From an uncultured Nitrososphaerales archaeon (GTDB lineage: Archaea; Thermoproteota; Nitrososphaeria; Nitrososphaerales; Nitrososphaeraceae): a stretch of 64,000 bases of DNA. Shown here one piece after another: positions 20,691-39,960 of the stretch. The notes under the pieces were generated by a model. It saw only the letters and a list, made by a program, of their open reading frames with translations. It searched no databases and had not been told where the DNA came from. Position 1 is the stretch's first letter. The number at the start of each line of letters is the position of its first letter. The stretch covers positions 20,720 to 84,719 of the forward strand of contig CAVPXM010000026.1 of assembly GCA_963709405.1 (NCBI GenBank), read 5' to 3'. The position numbers and the translations under genes are program-made.

Positions 20691-20827
20691 CAGCCGTTAA
20701 TACATTTTCAGGTTATTTAGGTTAGCGTTTGAGATTAGGCCGTATAACTGTCACTAGAAGTGGGAATATCAACTGGACTTATTTTTAACTAGCGTAGCAA
20801 TTTTCTTATCTATAAGACGCTTTATTT

Positions 20828-20966
20828 GACACGCCTCGTGGTAGACACGCACATAAACTTTTGTCATCGTATTGAGGTGTCAGTCTATACATTTGATGTC
20901 TCATTTTAGAGAATGTTTATACTCTGGCATGCTGCATATCGTCTTAGAACAATTTTTTCTGATCAG
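20828..20966 (+). repeat. Repeat A, copy 3
   Basis: acgcctcgtggtagacacgcacataaacttttgtcatc...gtcagtctatacatttgatgtctcattttagagaatgtttatactctggcatgctgcatatcg. Confidence 0.85.
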
Positions 20967-21115
20967 AAGCTTGCAGTTGCGACAGGCAGGCTCAAGTGGT
21001 ACAGAGCATGGTCATAATACTACTAAAACCAGTGAGTATTATCCCCTAACTCTCCAATCATATTATTACCACCAACGATAATTAAAGGGAGAAGGGCCTC
21101 TTCGGTGTACAAAAA

Positions 21116-21190
21116 ATGACACCTGATAAAGTTGCAATCATAACTGGTGGCAGTTCTGGTATTGGAAGGGCAACTGCAGTATCAAACCGA
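21116..21190 (+). pseudogene. N-terminal stub of a short-chain dehydrogenase/reductase
   Basis: MTPDKVAIITGGSSGIGRATAV carries the TGxxxGIG Rossmann motif and is cut off by repeat A copy 4. Confidence 0.75.
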
Positions 21191-21391
21191 CAGTCTATAC
21201 ATCTGAAACATTACTTTAGAAAAACGTTTTTAATCTGATATGCTGCATCTCGTATTATAGAACACTCTTTCCGAAATATAATATCAGACTTTTCAAGATC
21301 TGATATAGTCCGATGTGTTAAAACTTAGTGGATATTAGCAGAATAAAATACATTGATTCATATTGACTAATTATTATTGTCCAATTTGTAG
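21190..21391 (+). repeat. Repeat A, copy 4 (core plus tail, no left arm)
   Basis: cagtctatacatctg...taatctgatatgctgcatctcgtattatag...tccgatgtgttaaaac...ggatattagcagaat, matching copies 5 and 10. Confidence 0.85.
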
Positions 21392-21512
21392 TTAATCCAC
21401 ATTTATACTGTACTATGGCCAAATTGATTGTAGAAATGATTTTCTGGAATAAATTAACTACTCGAGCAAAATAACACGGTAAGTGATATGATAAACCCAA
21501 CCTCTTCTATTC

Positions 21513-21767
21513 TTAATTTCCATTCTTCATATTCTTCTGCTGTAATCTATTGCGTCTGACGATTTCCTTGTCAATTTCTTGCTGTTTTATTTGCTCTCCT
21601 CTACGCCCTGGTGTTTTTCCTTCCTGCTGACTCACCTTTCTTCTTTCTTCAGACATCTCATCACCTTGAGAATAGCTGCCAGCGCCTGGCTGCTTTTTTT
21701 TCTTTTGCAGCTCCTGTGCATATCTTTCCCGGAAAGATTGCTCTTCCTCAGTATCATTATTAGACAT
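21513..21767 (-). CDS. Small, highly charged hypothetical protein
   Basis: 84-aa ATG ORF preceded by a TATA-like sequence; Lys/Glu/Gln/Arg-rich. Confidence 0.6.
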   Translation of the reverse strand: MSNNDTEEEQSFRERYAQELQKKKKQPGAGSYSQGDEMSEERRKVSQQEGKTPGRRGEQIKQQEIDKEIVRRNRLQQKNMKNGN

Positions 21768-22093
21768 ATGCTCTATTTGCTTTCTATATTATAGCTATAT
21801 TACTTTTTACTTTCTAAATTCAAAACATTAACAACTTGAGTCAACTTTGTCTTGGATTCCATCCAACCGATGACAACGCTTCTCTCTCCATATATTATTG
21901 TTATACCTTGCTTAATGAATTTTCTAAATCAATGGAACATTGACTTAGCTGTGATGGATAAGAAAGGAAAAATACTACGGAATTCCGCTGATACTAAACA
22001 ACAATAATAATAATAATACACTATCTGATCCTATTTATGAAGATATAACGAGGTTATTTCCAGAGCTTTCTGCTTAATGCAAAAAAGTCTATC

Positions 22094-22535
22094 CTACTGC
22101 GTCACCTCTATTTTTCCTACCATAGTAGGATGTAGTCTACAAAAGTAAGAAAACTCTCCTGTATTTGTAAACTTGTGGGAATAAGTTTTAGATGGCGCTA
22201 TTAGAGATGCTAACCCTGAATCAAATACTTGCCCTGCATTGGGAGTATTAGGTACACCTGACGTAACTGTATGGATATTATTATCATTATTAGTCCAAAC
22301 AACTGTACTGCCAATTTTTATCTTGATATCATTTGGCGAGAATGCTTTGTTCCCCAAGGTAGCTGCTCCTTTTACAATTACGATGTCTGTTGCATTACTA
22401 GTTGTAGTAGACGAAGCATGTTCTTGTTGCATTCCAGCCATCATTCCATGTTGCTCATTATTAGTGGTTGCACCAGTAATTGTTGCTGCAGTAGTTGAGG
22501 TTATCTTTCCATGTGGATCTGCTTTCTGGAGGAAT
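22094..22535 (-). CDS. Plastocyanin/cupredoxin blue-copper domain protein, probably 5'-truncated
   Basis: AFSP..I.I.IG.TV.WTN.D...HTVT and the type-1 Cu ligands YFCRLHPTMVG. No signal peptide is retained. Confidence 0.85.
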
Positions 22536-23012
22536 TCAGATAGATACATTAACCAACCTGAAAGAGGCCCAAGTTTTCACACCCCTGCATTTATGCAAGG
22601 ATATGACTCAGGCTTCAACTCGTGCTCTGTCCATCAATCCAATAATATGTCGTCCTCAAACTCACTCTCTCCAAGCACGGCGTCAGAATTCCCCGCAATG
22701 GCAAACCAGGGCGATCAAGCAAGCTTTGGAGTCGCAATAATTGTTGCAATACTAGTCATTATATCATGTGTAGTACTCGCAATAAGAAAACTAATCACAA
22801 GAGGTAAACACAGAGAGAGACAGCACTTTTCAGATTCAGTAAAGGAAAGCGTATTAAAGAAACAAAATCATAAGTGTGCACGGTGTAAGCATATCCTTAA
22901 CGTAGTTGACTGGGATCATAAGAATGGAGATAGATCAAATAATAGTGAATCAAATTGTCAGGCATTATGTCCGAATTGTCATGCCATAAAAACAAGGAGT
23001 AATAGAAAATAG
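22535..23012 (+). CDS. Membrane-anchored HNH endonuclease, 5'-truncated
   Basis: SDRYINQPERGPSFHT..FMQGYDSGFNSC domain, a Ser-rich linker, a TM helix (FGVAIIVAILVIISCVVLAI), then CARC...DH....RSNN...NCQALCPNCHAIKT. The first ~100 aa of the track ORF are antisense to the cupredoxin gene. Confidence 0.8.
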
Positions 23013-23814
23013 CCGTTATTGATTATATTCAGTATGTTCTATCTGGCTGCTGTGTTAAGATTATTTTTATGTAACATTGAGCAGTTCACAAATATGCGCG
23101 CAACTAATTATATCCTCAAAAACAAGTTAGAGCAATTGCTAAATTTGTAAGTAATATGTGATCATGATCTGTTCTTAATTATGGACATTAACGAGCCTGA
23201 GGATGTCATCATCCCTCTAAACAGTTCTTGTCTAATATAATGCAGCATATGGCGCGCCCCACCATTCTACTACTACTCAATCTCTGCTTTATCTTATCAT
23301 TAATGAGCCATATTCTAAAATCGCGCGACAGATAATTTATCGCAGGTCTTTGACCATTCCATCGTTGTATTATTTTAACTTCCTGCCCACGCTTCGAATT
23401 GATGGTATCAGGAACTCTTACAAGACAGGAGTTTATTGTAGGATTATGTTGAGAATCTCCTTTCTTATTCGTTAGAAACTCTTCTGCAAACTGCATAAAT
23501 TTAGATGTCAGATCTTTTCCATCTGACGTTACTGAGTAGAATCTAATGGAATTCGTGTAGCGTTACTACGTATAGGAGACTTTATCCGAAAAAGCTGATA
23601 ATCCTGTAGCAGCCTAAACAGTATGCATGACAGATCTATAAATAGGGACACATTACAATTTCCTGCTTACTATACAGTTATGCGTCATCTTCATTCGGAT
23701 ATTGGTCTCCAGTTGAGCTCTCTCGACAGTCCATGAACTTGATTTGTACGATCTTGTCTAGAGCTATTAGACGAGCTTCATCATGATGCATTGATTGTAA
23801 TTGGATAGGGATTT

Positions 23815-23905
23815 ACACCCGGGATACCCGGTTAATTTCAACTCTAGAGAAGAATTTAGTGATGTATATAGAAGATTATAAGACAAAAGTAAATTATAAT
23901 AGCTG
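23815..23905 (+). repeat. Repeat C, partial
   Basis: acacccgggatacccggttaatttcaactctagagaagaattt, shared with 37013 onward. Confidence 0.75.
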
Positions 23906-24102
23906 ATTTCTTGACTGCTGCATACGGGCCAGGGCTGAGTGCAATCAGACAGGAAATATTCACGCATCATTTAAAGCCTTTAAATCAGAAAGCAAATGTG
24001 CTTGTAAGCTCTGCTTGATTGATTGACTGATTGATTGATTAATTGAGTAATTTTGAACCGTGTTAATAATTTGCTTTTAAGGGTGGCCGTGAATTAGAGA
24101 CA

Positions 24103-24321
24103 ATGAATACTCTAAGCCTATTCGTGATCGTTTTACTGGCCTCGCTGGCAGCCATTGCGTTGGCTGTATTCGTTGCATCTAACCCCTTAAGTGTCATGGC
24201 AAAAGATAGCGGCACCTTCAGCGGTGACAGTAGCGACAGTAGCGACAGTAGCGACAGTAGCGACAGTAGCGGCGATACCAACAGCAATAGCAATGACAAT
24301 AGCGATCCCGTTGAATCCTGA
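24103..24321 (+). CDS. Small secreted acidic Ser/Asp-rich protein
   Basis: Signal peptide ending VMA, followed by (DSS)5. Confidence 0.55.
   Translation: MNTLSLFVIVLLASLAAIALAVFVASNPLSVMAKDSGTFSGDSSDSSDSSDSSDSSGDTNSNSNDNSDPVES
24226..24270 (+). repeat. Tandem repeat (GACAGTAGC)5
   Basis: Five exact 9-bp units. Confidence 0.95.
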
Positions 24322-24515
24322 TACTATTATAGAAATGTGGTATAGGCTCGTGCAGGATGACGATAATAACATCAAACCAGAACAAGAATACGAAGCTCTC
24401 TAGCGATATCTCCAGACTTTTTTGATTATATAGTCTTTACACCTTTACTTCGTGTCGAATACGCTCGCTTTGTTTCTAAACTATATTCTTGTGGTGATCA
24501 ACAACTGATGCTATC

Positions 24516-25046
24516 TCATGATAATATCGGTTCTTTTATTCTAATGCTTTCGATTAATTTCTCAAGATAGCCTAGACATTGTTCAAAATACGGAATTGCT
24601 TTCATATTGGTTTTTGTATAATTAGCTAATACTTCAAAAGCTTCCTGAGAAATTAAGGAATTTCCTAATGAATAATTTCTTAGTTGCCTTATAGTCCAAT
24701 ACCAGTTACCGTATTGATTTGCCTTATCTAAATCATTTAACAGATCAATACTCTTAGTTTCAGATGATAATGCGCTTTGGATTTTGTCTAATTCAATCCT
24801 GTCAGATGGGACCGTCAAGCCAAATTTATCGTTTATCTTAAATAGAAGAGAGTCAACCGTTCCAATCATTTGACAAAGAAATGAGTCCATCTCTATTTCT
24901 GCACTTGTTCGGACTTCGCTTGATGTAAGATCGTTATATCTCAATTCAATATCCTGTAAATTCTTTAAATGTTGTCGGCAGGCATAAAGCTTAAAGCTTA
25001 TTCGGTCAGTCTGGAATCTCGAAAAATCTTCAGTAGACAAAATCAC
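24516..25046 (-). CDS. Helical hypothetical protein, possibly HEPN-like
   Basis: 176-aa ORF with E.DSFL..M.G.VD.L...IN and a late LRNYSLG segment resembling a degenerate RxxxxH. Confidence 0.55.
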   Translation of the reverse strand: MILSTEDFSRFQTDRISFKLYACRQHLKNLQDIELRYNDLTSSEVRTSAEIEMDSFLCQMIGTVDSLLFKINDKFGLTVPSDRIELDKIQSALSSETKSIDLLNDLDKANQYGNWYWTIRQLRNYSLGNSLISQEAFEVLANYTKTNMKAIPYFEQCLGYLEKLIESIRIKEPILS

Positions 25047-25148
25047 TTATAGAGCTGACTTGTACTCAGCTGATATTTAGTTTTATTGCAGGATCATTTG
25101 TGGCTGAAAAATGATAATAATTTAGTTCTATGAATAAAAAAAGAGGCT

Positions 25149-25242
25149 ATCGTATAGGATGGACTGCGGCGTAACTGCTTCATTAAATGGAGAAATGAAT
25201 GAGCTCATTTCTTATTCTCTTTTTATATTATCTAAGGTATTT
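25149..25242 (-). repeat. About 95-bp duplicated promoter plus gene-start stub abutting repeat A; second copy at 33685-33778
   Basis: taggatggactgcggc...aactgcttcatta.atggagaaatgaat..gctcatttcttattctctttttata occurs in both places. The minus strand gives TATAAAAA then MSxFISPxNEAVxPQSIL. Confidence 0.8.
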
Positions 25243-25565
25243 GGCGCGGGCGGTCATGACTTATATACAAATAAAGCGTTATCTGATCAGTCTCGTTATA
25301 TATCAAATCTTTGGTCTATAGATCTCACGCTTCATTTCCAAGAATGCTTATAATCTGGCATGCCGCATATCATATTATTATAACGCTATTTCCGGGATAT
25401 TATGGCGGATGTGTTAAAAAATCCGATGTTGTCAGATGTGTTAAACGTACTGCATGTTAACGTAATTAGTATGTTGATTCGCATCGACCAATTGCTACTA
25501 TCTATAGATATCATCAATTGGGAGTCGACAGATATTAAGTTCATCACGAGTCTTGATAGATAGCC
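25243..25565 (+). repeat. Repeat A, copy 5 (long form)
   Basis: ggcgcggg...gtctatagatc...aatgcttataatctggcatgccgcatatc...tcgaccaattgctactatctatagatatcat...gagtcgacagat. Confidence 0.85.
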
Positions 25566-25779
25566 TTGTTGAGCTCAGACTGGTTTGTATAGCTAATTGG
25601 TTGATAATGGAAAAGATGAACAGGCACACGAAAGAAATGATCACGATTATCAATGATTTAAATCTGAAATGGCAAAGGTTGAGCATTTTAATAAAAATAT
25701 GGCATACACAAGAGTGCCTCTCCCTCTATAAGTGGTGTATTAGTAGTTATTTAATTGCCTAATTATTATTATCTAATAA

Positions 25780-25980
25780 TTGTTCACGTCTGAAGAGATC
25801 AAAGAAATTTTGAGAAAAAGAATTACAGAAAAGGAGAAGAAGGTAAATCCTCGCCGGTATAATCTAAGGCAAGTAGAAGATGCTCTGGCGGAACTAGAGA
25901 CGTACCAAAGTTTTTTAGCAGATATTACGGATGAAGAGGCTAGACGTGAAATGAATAAGAGTAGGATTAAAAGTTGTTAA
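25780..25980 (+). CDS. Small coiled-coil protein (paralog of 6510..6752) between repeat A copies 5 and 6
   Basis: Sequence similarity to 6510..6752 throughout. Confidence 0.65.
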   Translation: MFTSEEIKEILRKRITEKEKKVNPRRYNLRQVEDALAELETYQSFLADITDEEARREMNKSRIKSC

Positions 25981-26002
25981 TCACGCATAGGTGCCACACA
26001 AA

Positions 26003-26185
26003 GCGCGCGCCTCATGATAGAAAATACACATTTTATCATCTTAACCAAACGTGAGTCTATACATATGATCTCTCAATCCAGAAAACCTTTTTAAAGTGAT
26101 ATGTTTCATAATGTAAATAGAAGACGCTATTTCCGATATGGTTATACCTAACTTTACAAGAATCTCATGTCGTCTAAAATGTTAG
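26003..26185 (+). repeat. Repeat A, copy 6 (diverged)
   Basis: gcgcgcgcctcatgatagaaaatacacattttatcatc...gagtctatacatatgatctctca...gaagacgctatttccgata. Confidence 0.75.
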
Positions 26186-26509
26186 TCCGTTAACTATTCT
26201 AAAAGGATCCGTCTTAGTGGCAGTCGTGGCGGATCATCTGGTGACGACAATTGAGGATTCTATTTCCAAGCGGCTGAGATAACAATCACTTACCATCGGC
26301 AAGAGAGATTCAGTAACTAGTAGCAGAAATGATTAAGGAGATCTGGGATAGGATCAGCAATACGCTGCGAAAATGACTAATGAGAAACGATAGGTACTAT
26401 AGTGTCGCTTTGCCAATGTTAGCAAAAGCGACAAGATAGAGACCAGTGATGAAGTCGCAAATCCTATCATATTATCATTGAAACCAACCTATTCCATGAT
26501 TTTTCTTAC

Positions 26510-26734
26510 CTACTTACATTGGACATTCATACTAAACGATGTTGAACTTCCAGATCCGGTCTGGTTTTTTTCACAGTTTTCCGGTAGACCGCTAATTGCG
26601 TTGGCCATGTCATGGCCCTTCTTAATCATTTGGTCAATGTTGAGTTCTGCTTTTGCTGTATGGGTGTAGGCTGTCATAGTCATAGTTATCGAAATAACAA
26701 TGGCTATTACGACAATAACAGTGATAGTTACCAT
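26510..26734 (-). CDS. Small secreted protein with a Cys pair
   Basis: Signal peptide ending TAKA; LPENC...NVQCK. Confidence 0.55.
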   Translation of the reverse strand: MVTITVIVVIAIVISITMTMTAYTHTAKAELNIDQMIKKGHDMANAISGLPENCEKNQTGSGSSTSFSMNVQCK

Positions 26735-26841
26735 AGGAAACCTGACGCATTATACCATTTAATATTTGGGATTTATTTATTTCAGTGTCTGTTATAGAAG
26801 AATCTCACCTTCATTTTCATGTCTAGGTATTCCAATGTGTT

Positions 26842-26970
26842 AGTCTATACTTCTGAGGTCTCATAGTCGAAAAGGTTTTTAGCGCGGTATTTTTCACACC
26901 GTTAATAGAATATCCGATATAATTTGATTGATTTTCGACTACGAGAGCTTATGATTAGTCAACACATTGT
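26842..26970 (+). repeat. Repeat A, copy 7 (most diverged)
   Basis: agtctatacttctgaggtctcata...aaaggtttttag...gttaatagaatatccgatataat. Confidence 0.55.
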
Positions 26971-27080
26971 ACAAGTACGTATTTTCTATCTTTAGTTTTT
27001 TCCAGACTTATTGGTAGAAAATCACCACTCATTGCAGAATTAATATTATATTTGATCATGTAGTTCGGAGTAAAGTCCGG

Positions 27081-27265
27081 TTACCTAAGATTACGACATC
27101 TATCGAGCCAATCCCTAATAATATTGGATGCTTCATCAGCAGAACATTTTCTGACGTTAATAAGGTAAGGAGTTACGATACGCCTTACAACAAATTTCTT
27201 ATAATCAACTAAGGGAGTTTGCAATTGCTTCTCGATCCACCAGATCGTTGTTGAACCTGCAGTCC
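27081..27265 (-). pseudogene. priX: Fragment of a PriX-like primase non-catalytic domain
   Basis: WIEK.LQTPLVDYKKFVVRRIVTPYLINVRK...EA.NII.DWLDRC resembles the PriX/Primase-X domain. The 5' end is lost at a GCGCGCC site near 27270. Confidence 0.65.
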
Positions 27266-27759
27266 GAGAGCGCGCCGGTCTAGTGGACACCTAATTATAT
27301 TATTCTCATAACCTGTGGATAATAAGTTATTTCATCGATAGAAAAAAGTTTTCATGTAGAGAACAACTTATGTATCACATGAGACTAAATTAATTCCAAT
27401 GCCCATTGCATATGTAAAAAATTCTAATATACAATATGAGCAATTTTATGGAGAAGAGAAGAATAAAGCGGGAAATAACGAAAATCTTAGATCAAAGCAT
27501 GTTTTATTCATACATGGCATGGGGTCATCATCTGCTGCTTGGTGAGATATTCCTGAGGCGTTAACTAAAATAGTTACCTCTAAAAATGAGCACTTTCATA
27601 CGATAAATTTATATTTAATTGGTTTTGGTAAAAGTGACAAGCCACTTACAGGTGGATATATAGCTGCAGAAGTTGCTATAAGGAATAAAGAACGAATAGA
27701 AAATCTTGTCTTGATAGATTCCTCAGGAACGCTGAGGCAACCAACACCTCTGTTAAGAG

Positions 27760-28345
27760 TTATGTAAACATGTAGATGCTTTCTCCATGTAAACTGTTTA
27801 TACTAGTTTTGCCTCTATGTTTTTTATTATAATCACATGCCCAATCAGATACTGCTTTACCTATATCACGTTCATTTTGAAAGGTGGAATTGTTTATTGC
27901 TTGTCGTTGCATCCATAGCCATCTTACCTCTATCAGATTGAGCTCGGGTGATCTGGTGGGAAGAAATACAAGGTGTATCCTTGGATGATATTTGGATAAT
28001 ACTGCTTTCACCTTGTTTGATTTATGTATCGATACGTTATCAAGTATCAGAAATATCTGCTTGATACTATCGTCATACTTTTGGTCCATTCTTTTGATAA
28101 AATCTAAAAACTGTTTTCCGGTTTTCTTTTTGTAGCCATGCGTCCACATTTGATCATTGGTATAATCGTATATACCAAACACGTTTAGAATTCCCTTTGT
28201 CTTTTGAGCTTTGGATACCTTAGACTGTGTAGAGGACCAAGATGTACCGCCATATGTTTTTGCTACTATCGGTCCTTTCTCATCCTCGTAGAGCAGGACC
28301 GAGTCAGAAGACAGGTTACTGTATCTTAGTTCTTCAATTCTCTTT
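27760..28345 (-). CDS. IS630 transposase ORF B (DDE domain)
   Basis: [17 protein letters not shown] and [13 protein letters not shown] motifs. Probably reached by a -1 frameshift at the A7G run near 28342-28350. Confidence 0.85.
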
Positions 28346-28838
28346 TTTTCAAATGATATTCAGGATCTAGGCTGTATCCCAGAGTAATCTTTGACTGCCT
28401 ATATTTTATTCCGTGTTTTAGGAGGATATTTCTAACCTCGGTGTGGCTGATAGCATCTACAAGGCTCATCTCCTTGGAGACAAATCCTGCTAGTACTCTT
28501 AATGACCATGTGGAAAATGGTAATCCATAATCTTTTCTTGAATTTTTGGTTGCTATCTCCACAATCTTATTCTCCATATCGTCAGATATTTTGAGTGGTT
28601 TATGCTTGTGTATTTTTGATGCTATTCCATCTATACCTTTTTCATTGAAACGATGAATCCATTTTCTTATGTTGCTATCATGATGGTTAGTTGCCTTCCT
28701 TATTTCAGGAACTGTGTATCCATCATCCTTAAGAAGAATAATCTTTGCACGGTATCCAGATTCTCTATCCTCAAGTATGCTATCATGTAACCTATTCTTT
28801 TCATTATTTGTAAGCAATCTGAGGAATGTATCCCTCAT
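28326..28838 (-). CDS. IS630 transposase ORF A (HTH DNA-binding)
   Basis: RAKIILL...IRKWIHRFNEKGIDG...WSLRVLA...ISHTEVRNIL. Confidence 0.85.
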   Translation of the reverse strand: MRDTFLRLLTNNEKNRLHDSILEDRESGYRAKIILLKDDGYTVPEIRKATNHHDSNIRKWIHRFNEKGIDGIASKIHKHKPLKISDDMENKIVEIATKNSRKDYGLPFSTWSLRVLAGFVSKEMSLVDAISHTEVRNILLKHGIKYRQSKITLGYSLDPEYHLKKRELKN

Positions 28839-29610
28839 GCTGATAATTTAAAAGAGAGTAAGCTAAAGGTGTTATGGTATCTGAACGAGCACTGTTAGTT
28901 TACAGAAGAGCATTACATATTCTTTACATAACTGTTAAGCCAGTATCTCAATGTAGCAATGGACCCAGAGCCTAATAGAGACAAGGTGAAAGAGGTATTC
29001 AAGCAGATGTATGCAAATCCTCTATTATTGTCTGATATAGTGGTTGATGTCTTTATGACAACAATCAGGGAAGAAGGTGCTAAAAATGCTTTCAAAACTG
29101 CCTTTAATGACAGCACTACCCGACCGATCGGCTTCAAAAGGCTTGAGAAGCTTAAGCATATCCCTTGTTTATTGATTTGGGGAGATCAAGATAATGTAAT
29201 ACCTGAAAAAAATTCCAAAGATTTTAAGGACGCTCTGATTAATGCTAAGTATGAGATAGTCGAAAACGCTGGCCATGCCCCATTTGTAGAAAAGACCTCT
29301 ATAGTATATGAAAAACTACGTTCATTTCTAACTTGATAGATTTCAACCATAAGTTTGTCGCAGGTGGTCTTCTGATCTAGCTTTCCAGCATTGGTTAAAG
29401 CAAACTAAGCTTGAGCAATCAATTTAAGTGACGTTGCATTTTGTCAGAAAGCTCCTCCATTAGGGACCCAATTAGCATATCTCTCCGGACAATAATTTCT
29501 GTCGATTAATAGACATCATGCCATAAATGCTCACGTATATCTCAAACTACAAAATACTTGATCCTGCTACGAATTTGGTTCATCATTACTAAAAAAGCGA
29601 CTAAGGGATT

Positions 29611-29720
29611 GGGCGCGGTTCTCGACATCCAATTGTCTTGTAATTGTATCGCTAGTGATTTGAAGTTGGATAAGGATATAATTGGGGGGCGTTATCCATA
29701 GAATTGGATATAGTATCATC
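29611..29720 (+). repeat. Repeat B, copy 2
   Basis: Inverted copy of 8735-8830, beginning gggcgcgg. Confidence 0.8.
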
Positions 29721-29881
29721 AGAGGGCGAGTCTGAGATTAACCAGAAAATCAGGTTTGGTTAAGGCTCAAGCGATGATTAACAGATGTTCAGGAAGAATA
29801 GTCATATTACTATCATCATCTTTTGGAACTTTTACGTTACCTTTTACATAGTGTTTATTGTCATGGGTTCTGGTGCCACGT

Positions 29882-30718
29882 CTAGGATTTCAAGAAGGAC
29901 AACAGGTCGGCGTTGAGCTGATCCTGATGGGTTGCAGTGAGGCCGTGAGGTGCGCCAGGATAGTAGATTTCCTTCGCGCCCTTGATGAGCTTGGCCGATT
30001 TCTTAGCCGAATCCTTGACGGGAACGATTTGGTCGTCCTCACCATGCATGACCAAGGTTGGGACATCGAACTTCTTGAGGTCCTCGGTGAAATCAGTCTC
30101 AGAGAAGGCCTTGATGCTTTCGTAGGCGTTCTTGAGGCCAGCGTGCATGCTCCAGAGCCAGAACTGATCCAGGATTCCCTGGGAGACCTTGGCCCCCTGC
30201 CTATTAGCGCCGTAGAACGAGATGGCCAAGTCCTTGTAGAATTGCGAGCGATCCTTGGTTAGGCTCGAACGCAAGTCATCAAACACTTCCATCGGCAGGC
30301 CCTCCGGATTGGTGGCTGACTTCAGCATGATCGGCGGCACAGCCGCGATTAGGACAGCCTTGGCAACTCTCTTCATTCCATAGCGACCGATATAGCGGGC
30401 GACTTCGCCGCCGCCGGTAGAGTGTCCCACTAGCGTGGCTTCCTTGAGATCAAGCGCCTCGATCACGGCTGCAAGATCGTCGGCATAGCCGTCCATGTCA
30501 TTTCCCAAATAGGTCTGGCTCGACCTGCCATGGCCACGACGGTCGTGTGCAACCACGCGGAAGCCATTTTGGGCTAGGAAAAACATTTGGCCGTCCCAAG
30601 CGTCTGAGCTTAGGGGCCAGCCGTGCGAAAAGGTTACGACTGGACCTTTGCCCCAGTCCTTAAAGTAGATTTCTGTGCCGTCCTTGGTCGTGATCGTGCT
30701 TGAGTCTGATTTACTCAT
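29882..30718 (-). CDS. cpo: Non-heme chloroperoxidase/arylesterase-like alpha/beta hydrolase
   Basis: [46 protein letters not shown] and PHG motifs. GC content is clearly above the window background. Confidence 0.92.
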
Positions 30719-31034
30719 TGATAATCCAGTACAAATTAGAGTTTATAAGTATATAAAAGGAACAAAAGTACAGTTGCAATACATTTTAGGCCCAGAAAAG
30801 AAACTTGTAGATAGTTGAAATAACGCTCATGTTCTTTATCTTCTTGTATTTCTTTTCTTCCACTATCAGTATTAGTCCATCTATTAAAATTTTCACCGTT
30901 CCGTTTGTGTCTCAATCTGATGCAGGTGAGGCAAAGATTTTTTCTCGTTTCATCAATAAAGATCGGGGAAGGTTTTCTAGTATTATAAACAAGAGACCAA
31001 TCGTGAGCAGACTGTTCTTTCCATCCAGACGAGC

Positions 31035-31488
31035 TTTCGGGTTTTATGACAATATGTGCAAGCTGATCCCTGCTGTGCGAACAGCGCGTATTCAAGTCTT
31101 CATCGTACCTCATCACCGTTGGAGAGAAGGAGGCTATAAGGGATGGAAGCATATGAATCCATCACAAATCCGTTCAAACGAGTCCCAGAGTTTTGCTACT
31201 GGAACTTGGGGTGGAGAGTTTCATCCTGAATTTGGTCCTCGCGAGGGAGATGTAATCGTGCTCGAGCACTGGGCACAAAGCGGCTTTGCCAATACGGATC
31301 TTGATGCTCAACTCAAGCAGCGGGGGATCCAGAAAATAATCTTGGTCGTAATGATAGCGAACACCTGTATCGAAGCCACAGATCGTCTTGGCATGGAGCT
31401 TGGCTACCATGTTAGTCTCATTAAGGATGCAACTGCTGCGCTCAATCATGAAGGCATGCATGCAATAGTTTTTTTATCTACCGTATAG
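31035..31488 (+). pseudogene. Isochorismatase/cysteine hydrolase fragment, 5'-truncated
   Basis: GTWGGEFHP, HWAQSGFANTDLD.QL, ANTCIEAT and ELGYHV.LIKDATAA. The first ~70 aa of ORF 30829..31488 do not match the family. Confidence 0.75.
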
Positions 31489-31652
31489 AAGTTGAATCGA
31501 TGGTTTGAGGGGGCGCGATCCAAGGATTAGAATAGAATGACATATACAAGTTTACGTGTTGGTTTAGGCAGTGGCTATTGCTAAGGGCTTCATTTAGGAG
31601 TTGCAAAGTCATCAAACCTCAAAATAATTCTTGTCCTATAAACGCATTATTT

Positions 31653-31855
31653 GGCGCGCGCCCTAAGGCTGAGTTGCAAATGAAGTGTTCTCATTAGGTC
31701 TATTTCTCATCAAGGTCTATATATCAAATCAATTGAGTCTATACAGATAATGTCTCATATCTAAAAATGTTTATAATCTGATATGACGCATATCGTATTA
31801 GAAGACACTTTTTCTGATGGATTTATACTGGATTGATGAAGCATTCTATATGGTT
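31653..31855 (+). repeat. Repeat A, copy 8
   Basis: ggcgcgcgccc...gagtctatacagataatgtctcata...aatgtttataatctgatatgacgcatatcgtattagaagacactttttctgat. Confidence 0.9.
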
Positions 31856-31960
31856 CTGTTTGACTAGAATCAAGGGAAGCTTTCTAGTAATCTGATTCTA
31901 TCTAATTTTCATTTTTATCTCCCTTAAACACGGGATAACCCTCCGTTCACCTAAGTTATC

Positions 31961-32068
31961 CGTAAAGGTTGCGGTCACTTAATCTATTTCGACGAGAACC
32001 AACGTACTGAAAGCGGGAAATGGATTCCATTAAGTAACGACACAGGAGAGCCGCATCAATGTCAATAG
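31961..32068 (+). pseudogene. Zn-ribbon-like C-terminal fragment, copy 1
   Basis: RKGCGHLIYFDENQRTESGKWIPLSNDTGEPHQCQ*. Confidence 0.55.
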
Positions 32069-32141
32069 ACAGGAAAGGAGACTATGCTTTGTATACCCTT
32101 AAGCAAAACATATTAGTCGCATATTTTATGGGGTAATCTGT

Positions 32142-32441
32142 ATGAGCCAAAAAACCATGGCTATAATTTTAATATCTACAATGATCACTATCAGTATAGC
32201 CACAATAACTAATAATTGTATTAATATTGCTTTAGCACAGCCTGGTTCAACTCTACCGGCAGAATCTGGCCGGCCTTCACCACCAGCATATCCATCACAA
32301 TCAACAGGACATCTATCATATCCATCATCATCGCTAATACCACATGCTAAACAGGCGACAAAAGTAAATCCAACGCCTGCTGGAAATATTACTGCTAGTG
32401 GTCCTTCACACTTCACTTCTTCCCCTATTCACAGTAAGTGA
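32142..32441 (+). CDS. Small secreted Pro/Ser-rich protein
   Basis: Signal peptide ending ALA-Q, followed by a low-complexity mature part. Confidence 0.5.
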   Translation: MSQKTMAIILISTMITISIATITNNCINIALAQPGSTLPAESGRPSPPAYPSQSTGHLSYPSSSLIPHAKQATKVNPTPAGNITASGPSHFTSSPIHSK

Positions 32442-32469
32442 ATAGCAGGAACAAAGGCGACAGAGTGAG

Positions 32470-32604
32470 AGACGTTATTATAGCTGCCGTAAAGGCTGCG
32501 GCCAGTTAATTTATTTTGATGCAAATGACGAGAATGGACTTGCTGAAAGCGGCAAACGGATTCCATCGAGTAAAGACACGGGACAACCACATCAATGTCA
32601 ATAA
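32470..32604 (+). pseudogene. Zn-ribbon-like C-terminal fragment, copy 2
   Basis: RRYYSCRKGCGQLIYFDANDENGLAESGKRIPSSKDTGQPHQCQ*, paralogous to 31961-32068. Confidence 0.55.
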
Positions 32605-32675
32605 CAAGAAATAATACTGATCCTGAAGAACTTCGCAAGTTGGAAGGAGTGATATGAATGTGGACAAAGACATTG

Positions 32676-32849
32676 GGCGCTGATATCCAAACCAAAGTGG
32701 AAGAATTAGAGGAATTAAATCAATCACTAAGGCAGCGTGATAAAGTAAAGGATGATGCAATAGCACAATTATCAAATCAACTTGTATCTTTATCAGCTAG
32801 ATTACAAGAGCTTGAGAGAAAACAAAGCGTAAGCATACCAAGCCAGTAA
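32676..32849 (+). pseudogene. Second integrase C-terminal coiled-coil tail fragment
   Basis: GADIQTKVEELEELNQSLRQRDKVKDDAIAQLS is nearly identical in protein to 19729-19877, with mainly synonymous differences. Confidence 0.65.
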
Positions 32850-33196
32850 ATACTTGTTCAATTTTTAACTCTCAAGTTAATGACATCCAGGAACCTAGAA
32901 CTATTTTCTGTTACGCCATTTAGTACTATTGGCAGACAGAATGTCATAAGCTTGATGAGTAAATGTCCAAGTCTAAAAGTGCGCGCAGGCATAAGAATAC
33001 AACGACCATAATAAAATATACTGCCTAGATTCTCAAAATTGCCTATTATCTGTTCAAGCTCTTGGTAAATACAAAATAAGGTTTACGATGCCACAGTATA
33101 ACTATAGTGAGGTACTATCTACTCAGTCTTGAAACAGCATTAACTAATCTGAAAAATGGAGGCGGCAAGGTTCTCTTAGAGGAGATTGGACTCTAA

Positions 33197-33616
33197 ATGA
33201 ATTATATTATATTCGCAGCTATGGCAGCGATCTTGGTCTTTACCACACTGACATCCAACACTTTCGCACACGTATCAGATCAACAACGCTATAATGATGG
33301 ATATAATGCTGGCCAAAACTACGCGGCCTGCGATTATAACAATTGCTATCATAGTGATCATGGTTACGATACAGGCTGCCCAAATGATAAAGTACATACT
33401 AACGAATATTGTGATGGATACTCACTTGGTTATACTAGTAAATGGAATTCATTAGCAGGTGGAACATCGACACAGCAATCTCAATGCCAAGCGCAGGGTG
33501 GATCTAATGTACGTGTAGATGGCAGTCATAATAACATAATCATAACTCCTAGACAGACCCAAAAGCAGTCATCAAATAGTGAATCGAATTCTGAAAATGC
33601 TGACTACGGTAAGTGA
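33197..33616 (+). CDS. Secreted Cys/Gly/Tyr-rich protein
   Basis: Signal peptide ending TFA; repeated GY motifs (YNDGYNAG...HTNEYCDGY). Confidence 0.65.
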   Translation: MNYIIFAAMAAILVFTTLTSNTFAHVSDQQRYNDGYNAGQNYAACDYNNCYHSDHGYDTGCPNDKVHTNEYCDGYSLGYTSKWNSLAGGTSTQQSQCQAQGGSNVRVDGSHNNIIITPRQTQKQSSNSESNSENADYGK

Positions 33617-33684
33617 TCTGAGGAGGTGAATAGAAACAATTGAAAAAATTAGTAGTAACTAGCCTAGCATTAGCGATGATGATG

Positions 33685-33778
33685 ATCGTGTAGGATGGAC
33701 TGCGGCACAACTGCTTCATTATATGGAGAAATGAATAGGCTCATTTCTTATTCTCTTTTTATAGTATCTGCGGCATCT
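33685..33778 (-). repeat. Second copy of the promoter plus gene-start stub (see 25149-25242)
   Basis: Near-identical to 25149-25242 and again directly adjacent to the GGCGCG end of repeat A. Confidence 0.8.
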
Positions 33779-33980
33779 GGCGCGCCCCTGACTAACATAT
33801 GGATAAAGTATTATCTGTCTAATGCTATGTATATCGAACCAAGTCAGTCTATACAGATAGTGTCTCATTTTAGAGAATGTTTATAATCTGATATGCCGCA
33901 TATCGTAATAGAAGACACTTTTTCCGATAGAATTATTCTGGATCTGATGGAATATCCGATATTGCCCGATATATCTTAAA
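33779..33980 (+). repeat. Repeat A, copy 9
   Basis: ggcgcgcccctgactaacata...gtcagtctatacagatagtgtctcattttagagaatgtttataatctgatatgccgcatatcgtaatagaagacactttttccgat. Confidence 0.9.
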
Positions 33981-33982
33981 AT

Positions 33983-34282
33983 CTACCTATTCGCTAACTC
34001 TGCTAATGTATCGCCATGACACGGCAGAGGTGCACACCAACAACCTAGGACTTTGCCTTTTAACTCTGGAAGCTGGTTCATTAATTCGTTGTTTTCTGGG
34101 GATAGTAACCATGTCCTATGCTTGGCTATAACTTGTTCTCTAGTACCGTCTTTACCGACTACGAAGGGATTACCCCATCTTCCATCGCTGCCGCAAATAT
34201 CTCGACGTATAGCCAGCGAAGGCCGGCCAATATACACATCATAAGGCCATTTCTTGCAATGGACTACGAACTTGCTGGTCAT
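33983..34282 (-). CDS. DUF4326 domain protein (commonly virus-associated)
   Basis: VVHCKK..YDVYIGR...WGNPF...G.R..VI...ELKGKVLGCWCAPLPCHGDTL.ELAN. Confidence 0.85.
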   Translation of the reverse strand: MTSKFVVHCKKWPYDVYIGRPSLAIRRDICGSDGRWGNPFVVGKDGTREQVIAKHRTWLLSPENNELMNQLPELKGKVLGCWCAPLPCHGDTLAELANR

Positions 34283-34694
34283 TTCTCATTCGTTGCCTTA
34301 TCTTATAATTTATTCAGTCTCATATGCTTGTATACAGAATCAAGAATATGAATTAGAACAAAAGCAAAAACCATATAGTCATAGTACGAAAATTTAACAA
34401 ACGGCTAAGGGAGTTAGGCTTAGCGTACATGTGTACTCGGATAGTGTCGAGCATACACACCAGCAACTGCTAGAGCTGTACGCAGGTATTGAGACAGACT
34501 TACGCAGTCATGGAATTGCAATAGCTCCTATGTCAGCGGCAAACGGAGCAATGAGGGAATAGGCGATGGACCTGTTATTAACCAAATGTAATCAAGGAAT
34601 TAATAAGTGGAGTGCCGCACTTAGTTTAAGAAAAATATCCACCGTAAAGTAAAGCATAAATCTACTGGTGACCTGAAATCTCATTAACATATAC

Positions 34695-35279
34695 TTGTCT
34701 TCTGAGTTTGTAATTAAGAAAGGGCCGAAACAATGGGAGGCCAAAATATTCTCAGGAAAAGAGGAAATCGCTGAAATAAAGAAAGGAGAAGGCCTTAGTT
34801 TTAAACTCGTAAGACCCAAGGACAAGATCGAATGGGTGCTTGCTAATTTGGTGCATGGTGAGCACCGTCCTTTCTCTTTCTCAGTGCGCAAGGCTGGAAA
34901 AAAAAGCACCAGCCCGTATACTGACAGCAACGACTTGGGAGATGAAATATTTGTTGTCCGTGACCAGTTGTTCAAGCATAATGGCAAATTTTACATGCTC
35001 GCAAGTCATCCAGAGGATAAGTCTTGGAATGAATATGTTAATAGTTCAATCAGGTACATCTGTAGGCTAGATGACTTTCCTTACTCAGAGCTTTCAGAAG
35101 TCGACTACCATCATTACACTTTACGGGACAAGATAAAGAGATTTCGCGGTAAAGCCGTTGGTGAAGCTTCAGGTTTGGGAATAGAAGAGCGAGGTCACCG
35201 TGTAAGGCTAGATAGCGAATTAGAGGACGTAGGGTTATTCATCGCTGCAATTTCATATTTGCTTTATGCCTCGGGCTGA
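34695..35279 (+). CDS. Hypothetical protein, probably co-transcribed with the downstream oxidoreductase
   Basis: 194-aa ORF ending 77 bp upstream of 35357 on the same strand. Confidence 0.65.
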   Translation: MSSEFVIKKGPKQWEAKIFSGKEEIAEIKKGEGLSFKLVRPKDKIEWVLANLVHGEHRPFSFSVRKAGKKSTSPYTDSNDLGDEIFVVRDQLFKHNGKFYMLASHPEDKSWNEYVNSSIRYICRLDDFPYSELSEVDYHHYTLRDKIKRFRGKAVGEASGLGIEERGHRVRLDSELEDVGLFIAAISYLLYASG

Positions 35280-35356
35280 TAAATAGAAGTAGTTTCACGA
35301 GATATTTTTCGGCATGATGTAACTTTAATAAATCAGGCGGTCCACATTCATTTTAA

Positions 35357-36846
35357 ATGGTTGACCCAAACCGCGTTGGTGGATTTCCTTTTCGTAAAGC
35401 AGACGCAGAACAACGGAAGATCGATTTTTCAGAGGTTCAACAACCCTACTCTGAGGAAGAGGTTATGCAAGAAGCCGAGCGTTGTCTTTTATGTGGAACT
35501 CCTGTTTGTATAGATGCTTGCCCAGTTCTTTTGGATGTTCGAGGTATGAACGAGGCTGCGGCCAGAGGAGACTTCAAAACATCCTATGAGCGGATCAGAG
35601 AAACAAACCCCTTGCTGGGTGTGACTGCCAGATGCTGTCCTCAGCTGCAAGGATTATGTGAAGATGCTTGCGTTTTGAAGTGGTCAGGACAGCCAATCGG
35701 GATCGGTCTCATTCAAAGATATATTGCAGACTGGGAAAGAAAAAATCGACAACCACCTGTATCCATCGAACAAGATACGGGAAAAAAGGTGGCAGTTGTC
35801 GGCGCTGGGCCCGCTGGCCTTGCAGGTTCTGCTCTTCTCAGAAGATATGGTCATCAGGTAACAATATACGAAGCATCTATTATGCCAGGCGGGACCGCAT
35901 GGTATGGGGTTCCAGATTATCATCTGCCTAAAGAAGTTTTAATTGATGAAATCGAAAAAATTAAAGCGATGGGGGTCAACATAAGAACCAACACTACTGT
36001 AGGAAAAGATGTAACACTCTCTCAACTTCTAGAGGAAAATGATGCAGTCCTAATTACTACAGGCTCGAAAGACACTGCGAACCTAGAGATCCCCGGAGTT
36101 AATCTTAAAGGAGTTCTGAGCGGATACCAGTTTCTTGAAAGTGTTTTCTTGGAAGGACTGGAAAGTTACTTGAGTAATCCAAAGTATAGTCTGGGTAACG
36201 ATATTATTGTAATAGGCGGTGGAGACACATCTCTTGATTGCGCGAGGACTGCGTTAAGGCTTACAAAAGGGAAAGGCAACGTTACCGTATTATGCTTGCA
36301 GCCTGAAACCGGATTACATGTTGACCCAATAATGCTTGAAGAAGCAAAGGAAGAGGGAGTGAAGTTCAGGTTCCTTGGGCAGGCAAAGTCTTTTGAAGGT
36401 GACAGTAACGGACATGTCGTAGCGACAATAATTGACAGTGTACACATGAGTGCTCCTGATCAGTCAGGAAAGAGGCATCCAGAGGTTATACCAAATAAAG
36501 AATTCAAGATGCCAAGTTCTACAGGTACTTATAGCTATTGGTAGAGGTCCAAATTCCTTTCTCCAAAAGAAGGCCGGAATCAAGACTCGGCAAGCGTAAT
36601 TCGATTGCAATTGCTGATGACTACAGAACATCTATGAATGGGGTCTTTGCTGCAGGAGACGTAACTAGTGGCGAAACTCTAATTGTAAAGGCAATGGAAA
36701 AGGGACGTGAGGGCGCTCAAAGAGTTCACGAATATCTAATGGATTTGGAAGCCGACCACATGTCGTTTTACGAAAAATATTACACAAAAATCTCATATGA
36801 TAGGATGTTGGAAGGCAAAAATGATGTTAGCTCACCTCCTGATTAA
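35357..36846 (+). CDS. gltD: GltD/SudA/PreT-like FAD- and Fe-S-dependent NAD(P)H oxidoreductase; frameshifts near 36520-36590
   Basis: EAERCLLCGTPVCIDACP and CCPQ...CEDAC Fe-S motifs, GAGPAGL, IGGGDTSLDCARTA and the C-terminal GVFAAGD in ORF 36538..36846. No gltB partner in the window. Confidence 0.85.
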
Positions 36847-37012
36847 AGAATCAAAGTGTATTTCTGTTCTTCTTGCAGTACACGGTCCACTAGGCATAGG
36901 CGTCACAAGTGAATCAGTTGTCCTAACGGACTTGGTGTAATAAGCAATGTTAGAACACCTAATAAGATGCTAAATACAATATTGCATTTCCTATGATTAA
37001 GGGTCATGCTAT

Positions 37013-37120
37013 GGATACCCGGGTTATTTTCAACTCTAGAGAAGAATTTGAGGAATATGTAGGACGATATATTAACCGAAAGTTATAATAGAATCCAAAA
37101 CTATCCCGGGTATCCCGGAT
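37013..37120 (+). mobile_element. Repeat C, complete copy: about 105-bp MITE-like element
   Basis: Terminal inverted repeats ggatacccggg (37013-37023) and cccgggtatcc (37105-37115). The internal sequence is shared with 23815 onward and 8645-8732. Confidence 0.65.
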
Positions 37121-37157
37121 GCAATATTAGGACGATATCTGTATAATCAACTGCTGC

Positions 37158-37460
37158 TAGCCCTGACTTACTAATGAAGTGTTATCTTTACATCGCACCA
37201 AGTCAGTCTATACAGATAATTCTTGATTTCAGAGAACGTTTATAATCTGGCATGCTGCACATCTGCATTAAAAAAACAATTTTTCCCGAGTTAACTGTAT
37301 GAATTTTCCACAAAATCTGAAATAATCCGACGTGTTAAAACATGCTGGATATTAACAGAATTGATTAGGCGGTTCATATCGACTAATTGCTACTATCTAT
37401 AGATATCATTAATTTGCAGAGTCGACAGATTTTGTTTATGAGTTCATCAAGTCCTGATAG
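37158..37460 (+). repeat. Repeat A, copy 10 (long form)
   Basis: ccctgact...gtcagtctatacagataat...gtttataatctggcatgctgcac...tcgactaattgctactatctatagatatcatt...gagtcgacagat. Confidence 0.85.
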
Positions 37461-37899
37461 TTTTACCTATCAATAGGATCAGACTAGTAAGTTTGGAGAA
37501 TTTTAGTAAGTCTGATTTATGTGCCTCAAGGAGCTTTGCTTGATGTGATGCCCTACCGATTTCAAATGTACATTTTTTATGTCAAGATGTACTTTATAGT
37601 AATAGTATCCTTGATTTTTGACGATTATCAGATAACACGGACTTTGCTCGAGAGTGTGTTCCGAAAGTGGGGCATATGGAGTATTCGGATCCTCATAAAA
37701 GAAGTTATCTATAGGATCTGGATTTGCTGTGTGCTGCTTCTATATGTATAGCGGAAAGGTTATTTAACTGGGGACACAAGCATGCGCGCCCTTCAACATC
37801 CCCGTCAGGTTTCCGTTAATATCACTAATGATTTGATCATGGTCTTCGCTTTGTCCTTATGTAAGATGTCAGGCCGTCATAGACGTCATGGTATCCATA

Positions 37900-39926: not shown

Positions 39927-39960
39927 GGCGCGCGCCTCTCGATAGACATGTACATGAACT
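39927..39960 (+). repeat. Isolated left end of repeat A
   Basis: ggcgcgcgcctctcgatagacatgtacatgaact resembles the left arms of copies 1, 3 and 6. No clear core follows. Confidence 0.5.

Follow-up and report, generated by a model that had tools for sequence, protein, structure and literature searches.

A dispersed mosaic repeat in a Nitrososphaeraceae archaeon is linked in orientation to a primase-like/PriX gene and not to integrases

Our results demonstrate that a long non-coding repeat in an uncultured Nitrososphaerales archaeon has a strong, oriented link to a replication gene and not to an integrase gene. The repeat, a unit of 250 to 300 bp, was noticed in a 64,000-nucleotide stretch of genome assembly GCA_963709405.1 (contig CAVPXM010000026.1, positions 20,720 to 84,719; hereafter the window), where co-oriented copies alternate with small, unrelated genes, and it is spread through the genome. 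An earlier reading of the window made without database searches (the sequence-only reading) had taken the copies for recombination sites or a non-autonomous element served by the resident integrase family. The explanation that we favor, with about even confidence, is that the repeat is a non-coding control region (an origin and/or a regulated promoter) situated behind the replicase gene of integrating mobile elements, and that the array is the debris of such elements in a variable zone.

The genome, designated G000, is a 4.83-Mb assembly of 100 contigs with 37% G+C, and the window corresponds to G000:C26:20720-84719. A hidden Markov model (HMM) built from the window copies gave 78 matches in G000, and the model rebuilt from these genome-wide matches gave 101, of which 67 hold the core of the repeat; "HMM n-m" below denotes positions in the rebuilt model. 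When all stop-to-stop frames within 2 kb of the copies in G000 were clustered, the largest cluster consisted of 25 fragments at 15 loci, all to the right of the repeat and all on the opposite strand. The fragments derive from a protein of approximately 350 residues, the C-terminal 95 of which form a PriX domain (PF18689 at 42.6 to 44.8 bits in 5 of 5 members, cutoff 25; NCBIfam NF033412 at 69.7 bits, cutoff 50; PDB entries 4wyh, 5of3, and 5ofn at E values of 4e-10 to 7e-10). No match to the N-terminal part was found in Pfam, PHROGs, or NCBIfam. This part contains the invariant columns D94-L-D96, G132-N-G-Y-H136, and R194-x-P-G-T-I-N-S-K202, which we take to be the primase catalytic motifs (DxD, sGxGxH, and R..PG..N.K), and the named clusters nearest to the protein in the protein Atlas are primase families at 0.92, a value that serves as a lead only. 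The gene beside the repeat is thus primase-like with a PriX domain (primase/PriX), the presumably catalytic nature of its N-terminal part following from these motifs and the Atlas lead only. Every repeat-linked copy of the gene in G000 is broken. Two intact primase/PriX paralogues, 45 to 52% identical to the repeat-linked subfamily, are found at G000:C38:46827-47891 (minus strand) and 95328-96482 (plus strand), and neither is accompanied by the repeat.

The orientation of the gene relative to the repeat is nearly invariant. Among the primase fragments within 6 kb of a core in G000, 41 of 42 are on the opposite strand. To the right of the repeat we also found a second element-type gene, for which we use the working name cl3; it is represented by the C terminus of a 398-residue protein of no known family and is convergent with the repeat, a homologous copy of which stands behind cl3 just as it does behind the primase gene. 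Within 1 kb to the right of the 67 cores there is a primase remnant in 15 cases and a cl3 remnant in 7, and 22 of these 22 are convergent with the core. A gene for a short-chain dehydrogenase (SDR) stands on the same strand to the right of 5 of the 67 cores, and a RelA/SpoT-like gene does so in one pair of loci.

The same arrangement is found in relatives, whose loci are numbered L0xx. In the loci of six relatives, 14 of 14 repeat matches are opposite to the primase gene. The intact block in relatives consists of a tyrosine integrase (matching PF00589 and phrog_1), a reverse open reading frame (ORF), a small ORF, a protein of 790 to 850 residues of no known family, and, in last place, the primase/PriX gene. 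Behind three of five intact genes (L025, L027, and L029) the repeat begins in reverse orientation approximately 20 to 40 nt past the primase stop codon, with the same junction in each case, and HMM positions above approximately 311 are in fact the last 49 or so codons of the gene. Among 56 metagenome loci that encode the primase/PriX gene, 21 carry a repeat match, 15 of 15 core-containing matches are on the opposite strand, and such matches adjoin the gene in L071, L073, L081/L082, L107, and L111/L112. In L025, L026, L082, and L084, an intact or nearly intact gene is followed by two to four copies that share one orientation and are separated by unrelated ORFs. Terminal overlap was seen in none of the 56 metagenome contigs. 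In the 3' part of the gene for the approximately 800-residue protein, immediately upstream of the primase gene, L025 (8738-8982) and L027 (10207-10306) have clusters of 9-nt units, (A/T)GTGTCGCA, which could be either a coding low-complexity linker or iterons.

No comparable link to integrases was detected. G000 has 28 matches to PF00589 and 45 integrase loci by tblastn, only 3 of which lie within 1.5 kb of a core, contrary to the proximity that a service by integrases had led the sequence-only reading to look for. Run with its filters all switched off, nhmmer detected no half-repeat upstream of any of the six integrase genes, intact or nearly so, that were searched.

The repeat is unevenly distributed in G000, where cores occupy only 44 of 293 20-kb bins, five bins hold three or more, and the matches cluster on contigs C26 (13), C6 (11), C44 (8), and C79 (8). 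The suspected orientation bias is present locally: neighboring cores no more than 5 kb apart have the same orientation in 18 cases versus the opposite one in 3 (P = 0.0015). Searches of six congeneric genomes and of 24 genomes from other genera of the same family or order found the repeat in all six congeners (11 to 23 scored matches each) and in none of the 24. In a collection of one genome per species (185,579 species), a strict core pattern was matched by only 7 stretches, in 3 metagenome-assembled genomes of uncultured Nitrososphaeraceae, and in a viral contig collection neither the core pattern nor any relative of the primase gene was found. Within G000, the contigs C54/C17/C60, C36/C59, and C45/C32 share multi-kilobase segments that are 94 to 99% identical, start near a repeat copy, and reach the contig ends; these may be recent duplications or co-assembled strains. 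C54 has a 664-nt stretch, immediately left of the repeat, that is absent from C17.

In the window, nhmmer found ten solid copies, eight on the plus strand and two on the minus strand (E values of 2e-68 to 3e-34), plus two left-arm fragments. All eight plus-strand copies named in the sequence-only reading were recovered by nhmmer and alignment (20799 to 37526), as were its two minus-strand copies and, as a weak match, its lone left end. It had described copy 4 as lacking the left arm; alignment shows that copy 4 has the arm and that copy 2 is the one without it. Its statement that there is no conserved reading frame holds for the core and fails above HMM position 311 or so, where copy 5 and its like run into the coding tail of the primase/PriX gene. 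Terminal inverted repeats are absent, as it had said; there are, however, internal palindromes. A repeat search of the window grouped seven of the eight plus-strand copies as one family (60 to 83% identity over an 80-nt core) and gave four subfamilies of longer shared arms besides it. A MAFFT alignment of all eight plus-strand copies has the words GGCGCGC, AGTCTATAC, AATGTTTATAATCTG, and GCATATCG in common. The copies are as follows.

3034 to 3274, minus strand: repeat copy (HMM 53-291; nhmmer E value, 7.8e-50).
9051 to 9499, minus strand: repeat copy (HMM 85-457; nhmmer E value, 1.7e-48), abutting the 3' end of a cl3 remnant.
20799 to 20962, plus strand: copy 1 (HMM 55-230), with the right side cut; repeat search, alignment, and nhmmer.
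21180 to 21410, plus strand: copy 2 (HMM 137-360), without left arm; alignment and nhmmer.
23186 to 23261, plus strand: left-arm-only fragment (HMM 25-94; nhmmer E value, 3.2e-4).
25162 to 25569, plus strand: copy 3 (HMM 6-410), with a long tail containing the TATCTATAGATA palindrome; repeat search and nhmmer.
25949 to 26193, plus strand: copy 4 (HMM 36-290); alignment and nhmmer.
26745 to 27101, plus strand: copy 5 (HMM 38-457), the tail of which is a primase/PriX 3' end on the opposite strand; nhmmer and tblastn.
31586 to 31874, plus strand: copy 6 (HMM 20-288); repeat search and nhmmer.
33697 to 34029, plus strand: copy 7 (HMM 5-325), sharing approximately 100 nt further left with copy 3; repeat search and nhmmer.
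37124 to 37526, plus strand: copy 8 (HMM 51-457), with a tail in common with copy 3 and abutting the 3' end of a cl3 remnant; repeat search and nhmmer.
39879 to 39960, plus strand: left arm only (HMM 43-115; nhmmer E value, 0.0011).

Parts of the array are supported at 99% identity or more by contigs from other samples; record 11 of X3, for example, covers 25514-27780. A comparison with public runs, which rested on short assembled contigs, gave many joints that link equivalent positions of different copies (20906>31760, 21360>37384, and 25544>37448, among others, with sides of only 21 to 37 nt at 90% likeness), and such joints mostly stem from paralogous copies.

From left to right, the elements of the core are GGCGCGCC, two or three GTCTAT words, an A-rich stretch with the TATA-like box TTTATAAT, the palindrome ATGC-N-GCAT, TTTCCGATAT, and a second ATCCGAT; repeated (T)CCGATAT and GTCTAT words are among the conserved features. 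Against a background of 2,000 random 400-nt genome windows, and allowing one mismatch, TTTCCGATAT is present in 45 of 66 copies versus 69 windows (3.5%), and the left-arm word GGCGCGCC is present in 28 of 46 copies versus 53 windows. GTCTATAC, which lies among the GTCTAT words, was found in 39 of 59 copies. The palindrome ATGC-N-GCAT is present in 44 of 67 copies and measures 9 to 21 bp, extending in some of them to TCTGATATGC-T-GCATATCGTA. One subfamily has an imperfect palindrome of approximately 50 bp around TATCTATAGATA, and near both ends of one subfamily there is a palindromic word of 12 bp, TATCTATAGA(TA). In the tails of copies 3 and 8 (25478-25545 and 37373-37440), the 50-bp palindrome reads TCGAC-CAATTG-...-TATCTATAGATA-...-CAATTG-...-GTCGAC, and its single-strand fold is not significant.

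Folding does not appear to be what is conserved. RNAalifold returned no consensus pairs on either strand for five segments of 30 to 45 distinct G000 copies, the single-copy DNA folds of three cores and two tails were not significant (z scores of -1.81 to +1.40), and Rfam gave 0 matches at gathering thresholds in the 64-kb window. Because conserved words are separated by free positions and neither strand folds, the words are better read as protein-binding sites in duplex DNA, and we infer that the repeat acts as double-stranded DNA bound by proteins.

The same data make it barely credible that the repeat is a gene for a structured non-coding RNA or for a small protein. It may have a promoter of its own, and a consensus frame of 34 codons starts from a conserved ATG; against this stand the empty Rfam and RNAalifold results, the stops and indels that break the small frame in copies 2, 3, and 6 and its shift in copy 8, and the position of the ATG, which is too near the TATA-like box to lie in its transcript. 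The small ORF starting at the conserved ATG and a C/D-box-like reading of ATGATGT...CTGA were both rejected by eye in view of stops, indels, and an insufficient spacing.

The order of A-rich stretch, TATA box, and palindrome raises the possibility that the repeat is a portable archaeal promoter-operator that drives a short antisense or leader transcript, or the gene on the right, and that is spread and kept by regulating its neighbors. This would agree with the presence of TTTATAAT, with at most one mismatch, in 60 of 66 copies, where AGAAAA stands before it and the palindrome comes after it at operator distance. It would also agree with the observation that almost every copy includes the stretch between the TATA box and CCGATAT, which is the best conserved part across species as well (matches in relatives mostly start at query positions 155 to 189). 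The same-strand SDR genes after 5 of 67 copies and the RelA/SpoT-like gene of one locus pair point the same way. Nevertheless, in this AT-rich genome 976 of the 2,000 random windows also contain a TTTATAAT-like word, and a T5 run lies approximately 15 nt beyond the start expected from the TATA-like box. The nearest downstream ORF of at least 100 residues is on the same strand as the core in 34 cases, on the opposite strand in 23, and absent in 10 (n = 67), and 22 of 67 copies face the 3' end of a gene that is no longer functional. No RNA contig lies on any copy, the coverage being far too thin to count. We therefore regard the regulation of neighbors by a portable promoter as quite unlikely to be what the repeat is for.

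The copies have no common ends. The 101 HMM matches start and end at scattered positions and do not pile up at fixed ones, and in 27 copies inspected at both ends neither common termini nor a target-site duplication was seen. The copies are mosaics: in pairs of copies, blocks of high identity break off inside the repeat, and in a maximum chi-square test 166 of 526 pairs scored above all 150 site-shuffled controls. The breakpoints scatter over HMM 87-280, and the end of the conserved core accounts for part of the signal at 230-270. Such mosaicism fits homologous exchange among similar copies.

A MITE-like (for miniature inverted-repeat transposable element), non-autonomous element favoring the 3' flank of replication genes would explain approximately 70 copies per genome at 60 to 90% identity in all congeners, the many copies without a recognizable element gene nearby, and the word TATCTATAGA(TA) near both ends of one subfamily. 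Such an element is very unlikely on the evidence of the ends, since terminal inverted repeats and fixed termini are absent and no target-site duplication was seen in the 27 copies inspected at both ends. Furthermore, in no near-identical pair does the similarity stop sharply at both edges of the repeat, and no transposase family was found beside the repeat, the IS630-type gene in the array being unrelated to it.

A further alternative is that the palindromic core is a site for site-specific recombination or integration, where elements, or integrase-less cassettes mobilized in trans, insert into the copy left by a previous insertion and so build co-oriented arrays of hybrid sites with unrelated cargo. 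We consider this, which comes near to the sequence-only reading, doubtful. The local co-orientation (18 versus 3 within 5 kb), the between-copy content that differs among relatives, and the many integrase genes and fragments of the genome are what it would predict. The same hydrolase-side module is joined to right sides of the SDR, primase, or cl3 type, and half-units occur as separate blocks that overlap by approximately 30 nt around ATGC-N-GCAT (C44 9910 versus 15243, -128 to +27; C30 versus C44 13362, -1 to +284). However, the breakpoints in 166 of 526 pairs are spread over HMM 87-280, and when 11 closely related pairs were read base by base, 3 to 5 switched at or beside ATGC-N-GCAT and 5 switched 30 to 45 nt to the right, after CCGATAT. 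Known tyrosine-recombinase cores have a spacer of 6 to 8 bp; the center of the palindrome is only 1 nt. Integrase loci are rarely near a core (3 of 45), intact integrases lack an adjoining half-site, and many spacer genes are pseudogenes or, in one case, an insertion sequence (IS). The junction between primase gene and core is the same in unrelated loci, which argues that it was inherited and not re-created.

In a stricter form, the palindromic core would be a dedicated recombination or docking site for primase-type elements and, in trans, for integrase-less cassettes, and the arrays would be an archaeal, sequence-defined counterpart of integron cassette arrays. This would account for the reassortment of flanks around a zone of approximately 30 nt, and we regard it as unlikely. 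attC sites are imperfect inverted repeats that form a hairpin as single strands, and integron cassettes mostly carry one promoterless ORF in one orientation. As in integron arrays and in attC clusters without an integron integrase, the repeats here are co-oriented between unrelated small genes, and the content differs between relatives. Here, in contrast, no attC-type hairpin, adjacent IntI-type integrase, or attI was found, genes run both ways, and the repeat is 2 to 4 times longer than attC and conserved in sequence, not in structure. The sequence-only reading had itself remarked that the repeat does not look like attC, and the lack of any attC-like fold (RNAalifold empty on both strands; z scores as above) bears this out. 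Its wider proposal, that the copies are recombination sites or a non-autonomous element served by integrases, stands as regards the mobile-element setting, the co-orientation, and the reassortment of flanks, and falls on the integrase link, the fold, the fixed ends, and a single crossover point.

Enterobacterial bacterial interspersed mosaic elements (BIMEs) and neisserial intergenic mosaic elements are built of short palindromic, folding units (REP and dRS3, respectively). Like these, the repeat is a dispersed, modular non-coding unit that occurs in variable combinations, is clustered in variable regions, and would be able to promote the exchange of flanking genes. Unlike them, the unit is long, unfolded, and tied to a mobile-element replication gene.

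Under the explanation that we favor, the repeat module would control the replication and copy number of a genus-specific group of integrating mobile elements, as an origin and/or as a regulated promoter directed at the replicase gene's 3' end. The chromosomal copies would be leftovers of many insertions into variable zones, the coding parts of which would decay or be deleted after insertion, while homologous exchange between similar cores would reshuffle the flanks. Co-orientation would be inherited: behind the replicase gene, elements already have several copies in the same orientation, and they would insert in one direction per zone.

Known archaeal systems offer partial parallels. Replication of pRN1 requires a region within 166 bp downstream of its primase-type replicase gene that includes a 100-nt stem-loop (PMC4234260). 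Both cases have a short non-coding region directly downstream of a primase-type replicase gene in a small archaeal mobile replicon. They differ in that the origin of pRN1 is a stem-loop, whereas no fold is predicted here, and in that the pRN1 replicase is a prim-pol/helicase fusion, whereas here a primase-like domain is fused to PriX. PolpTN2, a protein of plasmid pTN2 that joins a PriS-like to a PriL-like domain (PMC3973330), is likewise a plasmid-borne single-chain primase with a catalytic-type domain and a helix-bundle accessory domain. The C-terminal domain here is PriX, unlike that of PolpTN2, and the catalytic nature of the N-terminal domain is suggested by motifs and the Atlas lead only. 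Arrays of archaeal elements that reuse one integration site have been described (Krupovic et al. 2019; PMC6563490). They share with the present case the phylum, tyrosine-integrase elements with primase-type replication genes, tandem co-oriented accumulation in one place, and decay to cryptic remnants. In tandem arrays that a tyrosine integrase builds by reusing one site, direct att repeats bound each unit and the target is often a tRNA gene. The described arrays have att repeats of 29 to 69 bp, whereas here the repeated unit is a long internal non-coding region, and no att repeat or tRNA target was found.

Several observations weigh against the explanation that we favor. Two of the five intact primase genes (L026 and L028) have unrelated sequence behind them, and 11 metagenome loci with a close homologue (L070, L074, L083, L084, L087, L088, L090, L091, L101, L102, and L104) match the coding tail of the model only. 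With the core missing behind many intact primase genes, the repeat is not an obligate part of the element. Conversely, 38 of 67 cores have no remnant of any tested gene on the right and 52 of 67 have none on the left. G000 has 31 to 33 primase loci and 26 to 29 integrase loci as against 4 to 5 loci of the approximately 800-residue gene, a rarity that decay of whole elements alone fails to explain. No stem-loop like the 100-nt one of the pRN1 origin is predicted. The switch from related to unrelated sequence at or beside the palindrome in 3 to 5 of the 11 pairs is also what a specific recombination site would give. Finally, direct repeats around the intact elements were only chance-size matches of 12 to 15 nt, with no att pair; as no attachment sites or element boundaries are defined, serial insertion is something that we infer.

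Further searches bear on the attachment sites. Followed outward, the left flank of the L027 element runs into unrelated sequence in G002 and off the end of a contig in G006, and that of the L025 element runs into the stub of a different element in G001, so neither comparison gave an empty site. The left junction of L025 was not found a second time in searches made for it. No tRNA genes were detected in the window or in the six relatives' loci, and no tRNA fragment longer than 13 nt was found in the array or the consensus; Aragorn reported only 28 tRNAs in G000, and intron-bearing tRNA genes may be missed. L134 (G001:C146) matches the L025 left flank up to 30 nt into the integrase ORF (L025 3891-3921) and then continues as a stub of a different primase-helicase-like gene. 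The attachment site of the L025 integrase may overlap its own start codon.

The array lies in a variable zone of the window, one that abounds in decayed and mobile DNA. Synteny with three relatives, which includes a helicase gene and a rhodanese gene, stops near window position 19103, directly after the rhodanese gene. The remaining 19.1 to 64 kb have no protein-level match in the next 20 to 60 kb fetched from each of the three relatives, each of which holds different content there, with its own repeat copies; the gene content between copies, for which the sequence-only reading had proposed a comparison among strains, is therefore not conserved among relatives. Spacer genes include a cupredoxin gene, an HNH-like ORF, a DUF4326 gene, and primase and cl3 remnants, together with pieces of a hydrolase and an isochorismatase, broken GltD-like and PhoD-like genes, and an IS630-type transposase. 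Full SDR genes sit after the repeat at other loci. The features identified around the copies are as follows.

8951 to 9079, plus strand: remnant of the cl3 C terminus, convergent with the adjoining copy (G000:C26:29670-29798; E value, 1.2e-9).
19557 to 19869, plus strand: C-terminal remnant of a tyrosine integrase, residues 278 to 389 of a relative's 398-residue integrase, with one in-frame stop; tblastn.
21116 to 21179, plus strand: SDR-like N-terminal stub in place of the left arm of copy 2, containing MTPDKVAIITGGSSGIGRA, which we take to be an SDR motif; alignment.
23260 to 23526, minus strand: middle fragment of the primase/PriX gene, residues approximately 159 to 259, 74 to 78% identical to the intact genes of relatives; tblastn.
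26957 to 27299, minus strand: decayed C-terminal (PriX) part of the primase gene, residues approximately 237 to 366; tblastn, with stops counted at G000:C26:47749-48051.
27760 to 28838, minus strand: IS630-type transposase split into two ORFs, an insertion in the array that does not belong to the repeat family; Pfam DDE_3 and HTH_32/29/28/23.
32675 to 32823, no strand assigned: 149 nt with 85% DNA identity to 19728-19876, the tail of the integrase remnant; repeat search.
37530 to 37718, minus strand: remnant of the cl3 C terminus, convergent with copy 8 (G000:C26:58249-58437; E value, 1.7e-17).

The integrase remnant that the sequence-only reading had placed before the first copy is thus real but small, at 110 residues and with its in-frame stop, and PF00589 has no match inside the window at an E value of 0.01 or below. 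The second remnant that it had placed inside the array has the 85% DNA identity of 32675-32823 in its favor and no tblastn match. The IS630-type transposase is 8 to 20 times deeper than its neighbors in three soil metagenome runs, and the RNA contigs of X20, very thin in coverage, lie only on this gene (the main part), the hydrolase piece, and 34237-34414, none of them on a repeat copy; depth and RNA cover suggest that it is probably an active multicopy IS. The GltD-like gene (35357-36846, plus strand) is broken near 36540, and the contigs of X3, X6, and X8 all lack one letter at 36524; the frameshift may be strain specific or an assembly error. In an ORF of 257 residues (22239-23012, plus strand), the last 60 or so residues match HNH endonucleases (PHROGs; E value, 1.6e-6). 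Since it overlaps the cupredoxin gene on the other strand (22094-22549, minus strand), most of this ORF is probably not real.

The elements that combine an integrase with a primase-like/PriX fusion and to which the repeat is tied apparently form an undescribed family in uncultured soil archaea. A literature search found nothing on such a repeat or element gene order in Nitrososphaera-type archaea, with the qualification that the supplementary tables of PMC6563490 may list related elements.

A striking co-oriented array near an integrase stub has proved to be tied to a replication gene and not to the integrase, and the repeat as it stands is an interspersed mosaic mobile-element remnant and not a new recombination system. 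Should its core be a recombination site after all, this would represent a new kind of archaeal gene-cassette system. The more complete assemblies of this uncultured genus of soil ammonia-oxidizing archaea are large (3.4 to 4.9 Mb), and approximately 70 copies per genome of an element-derived repeat mark the zones where foreign DNA gathers and is reshuffled. The repeat is therefore a practical marker for variable islands and for a so far undescribed element family. If it is indeed an origin or control region, it would offer a starting point for a vector in a group without a genetic system.

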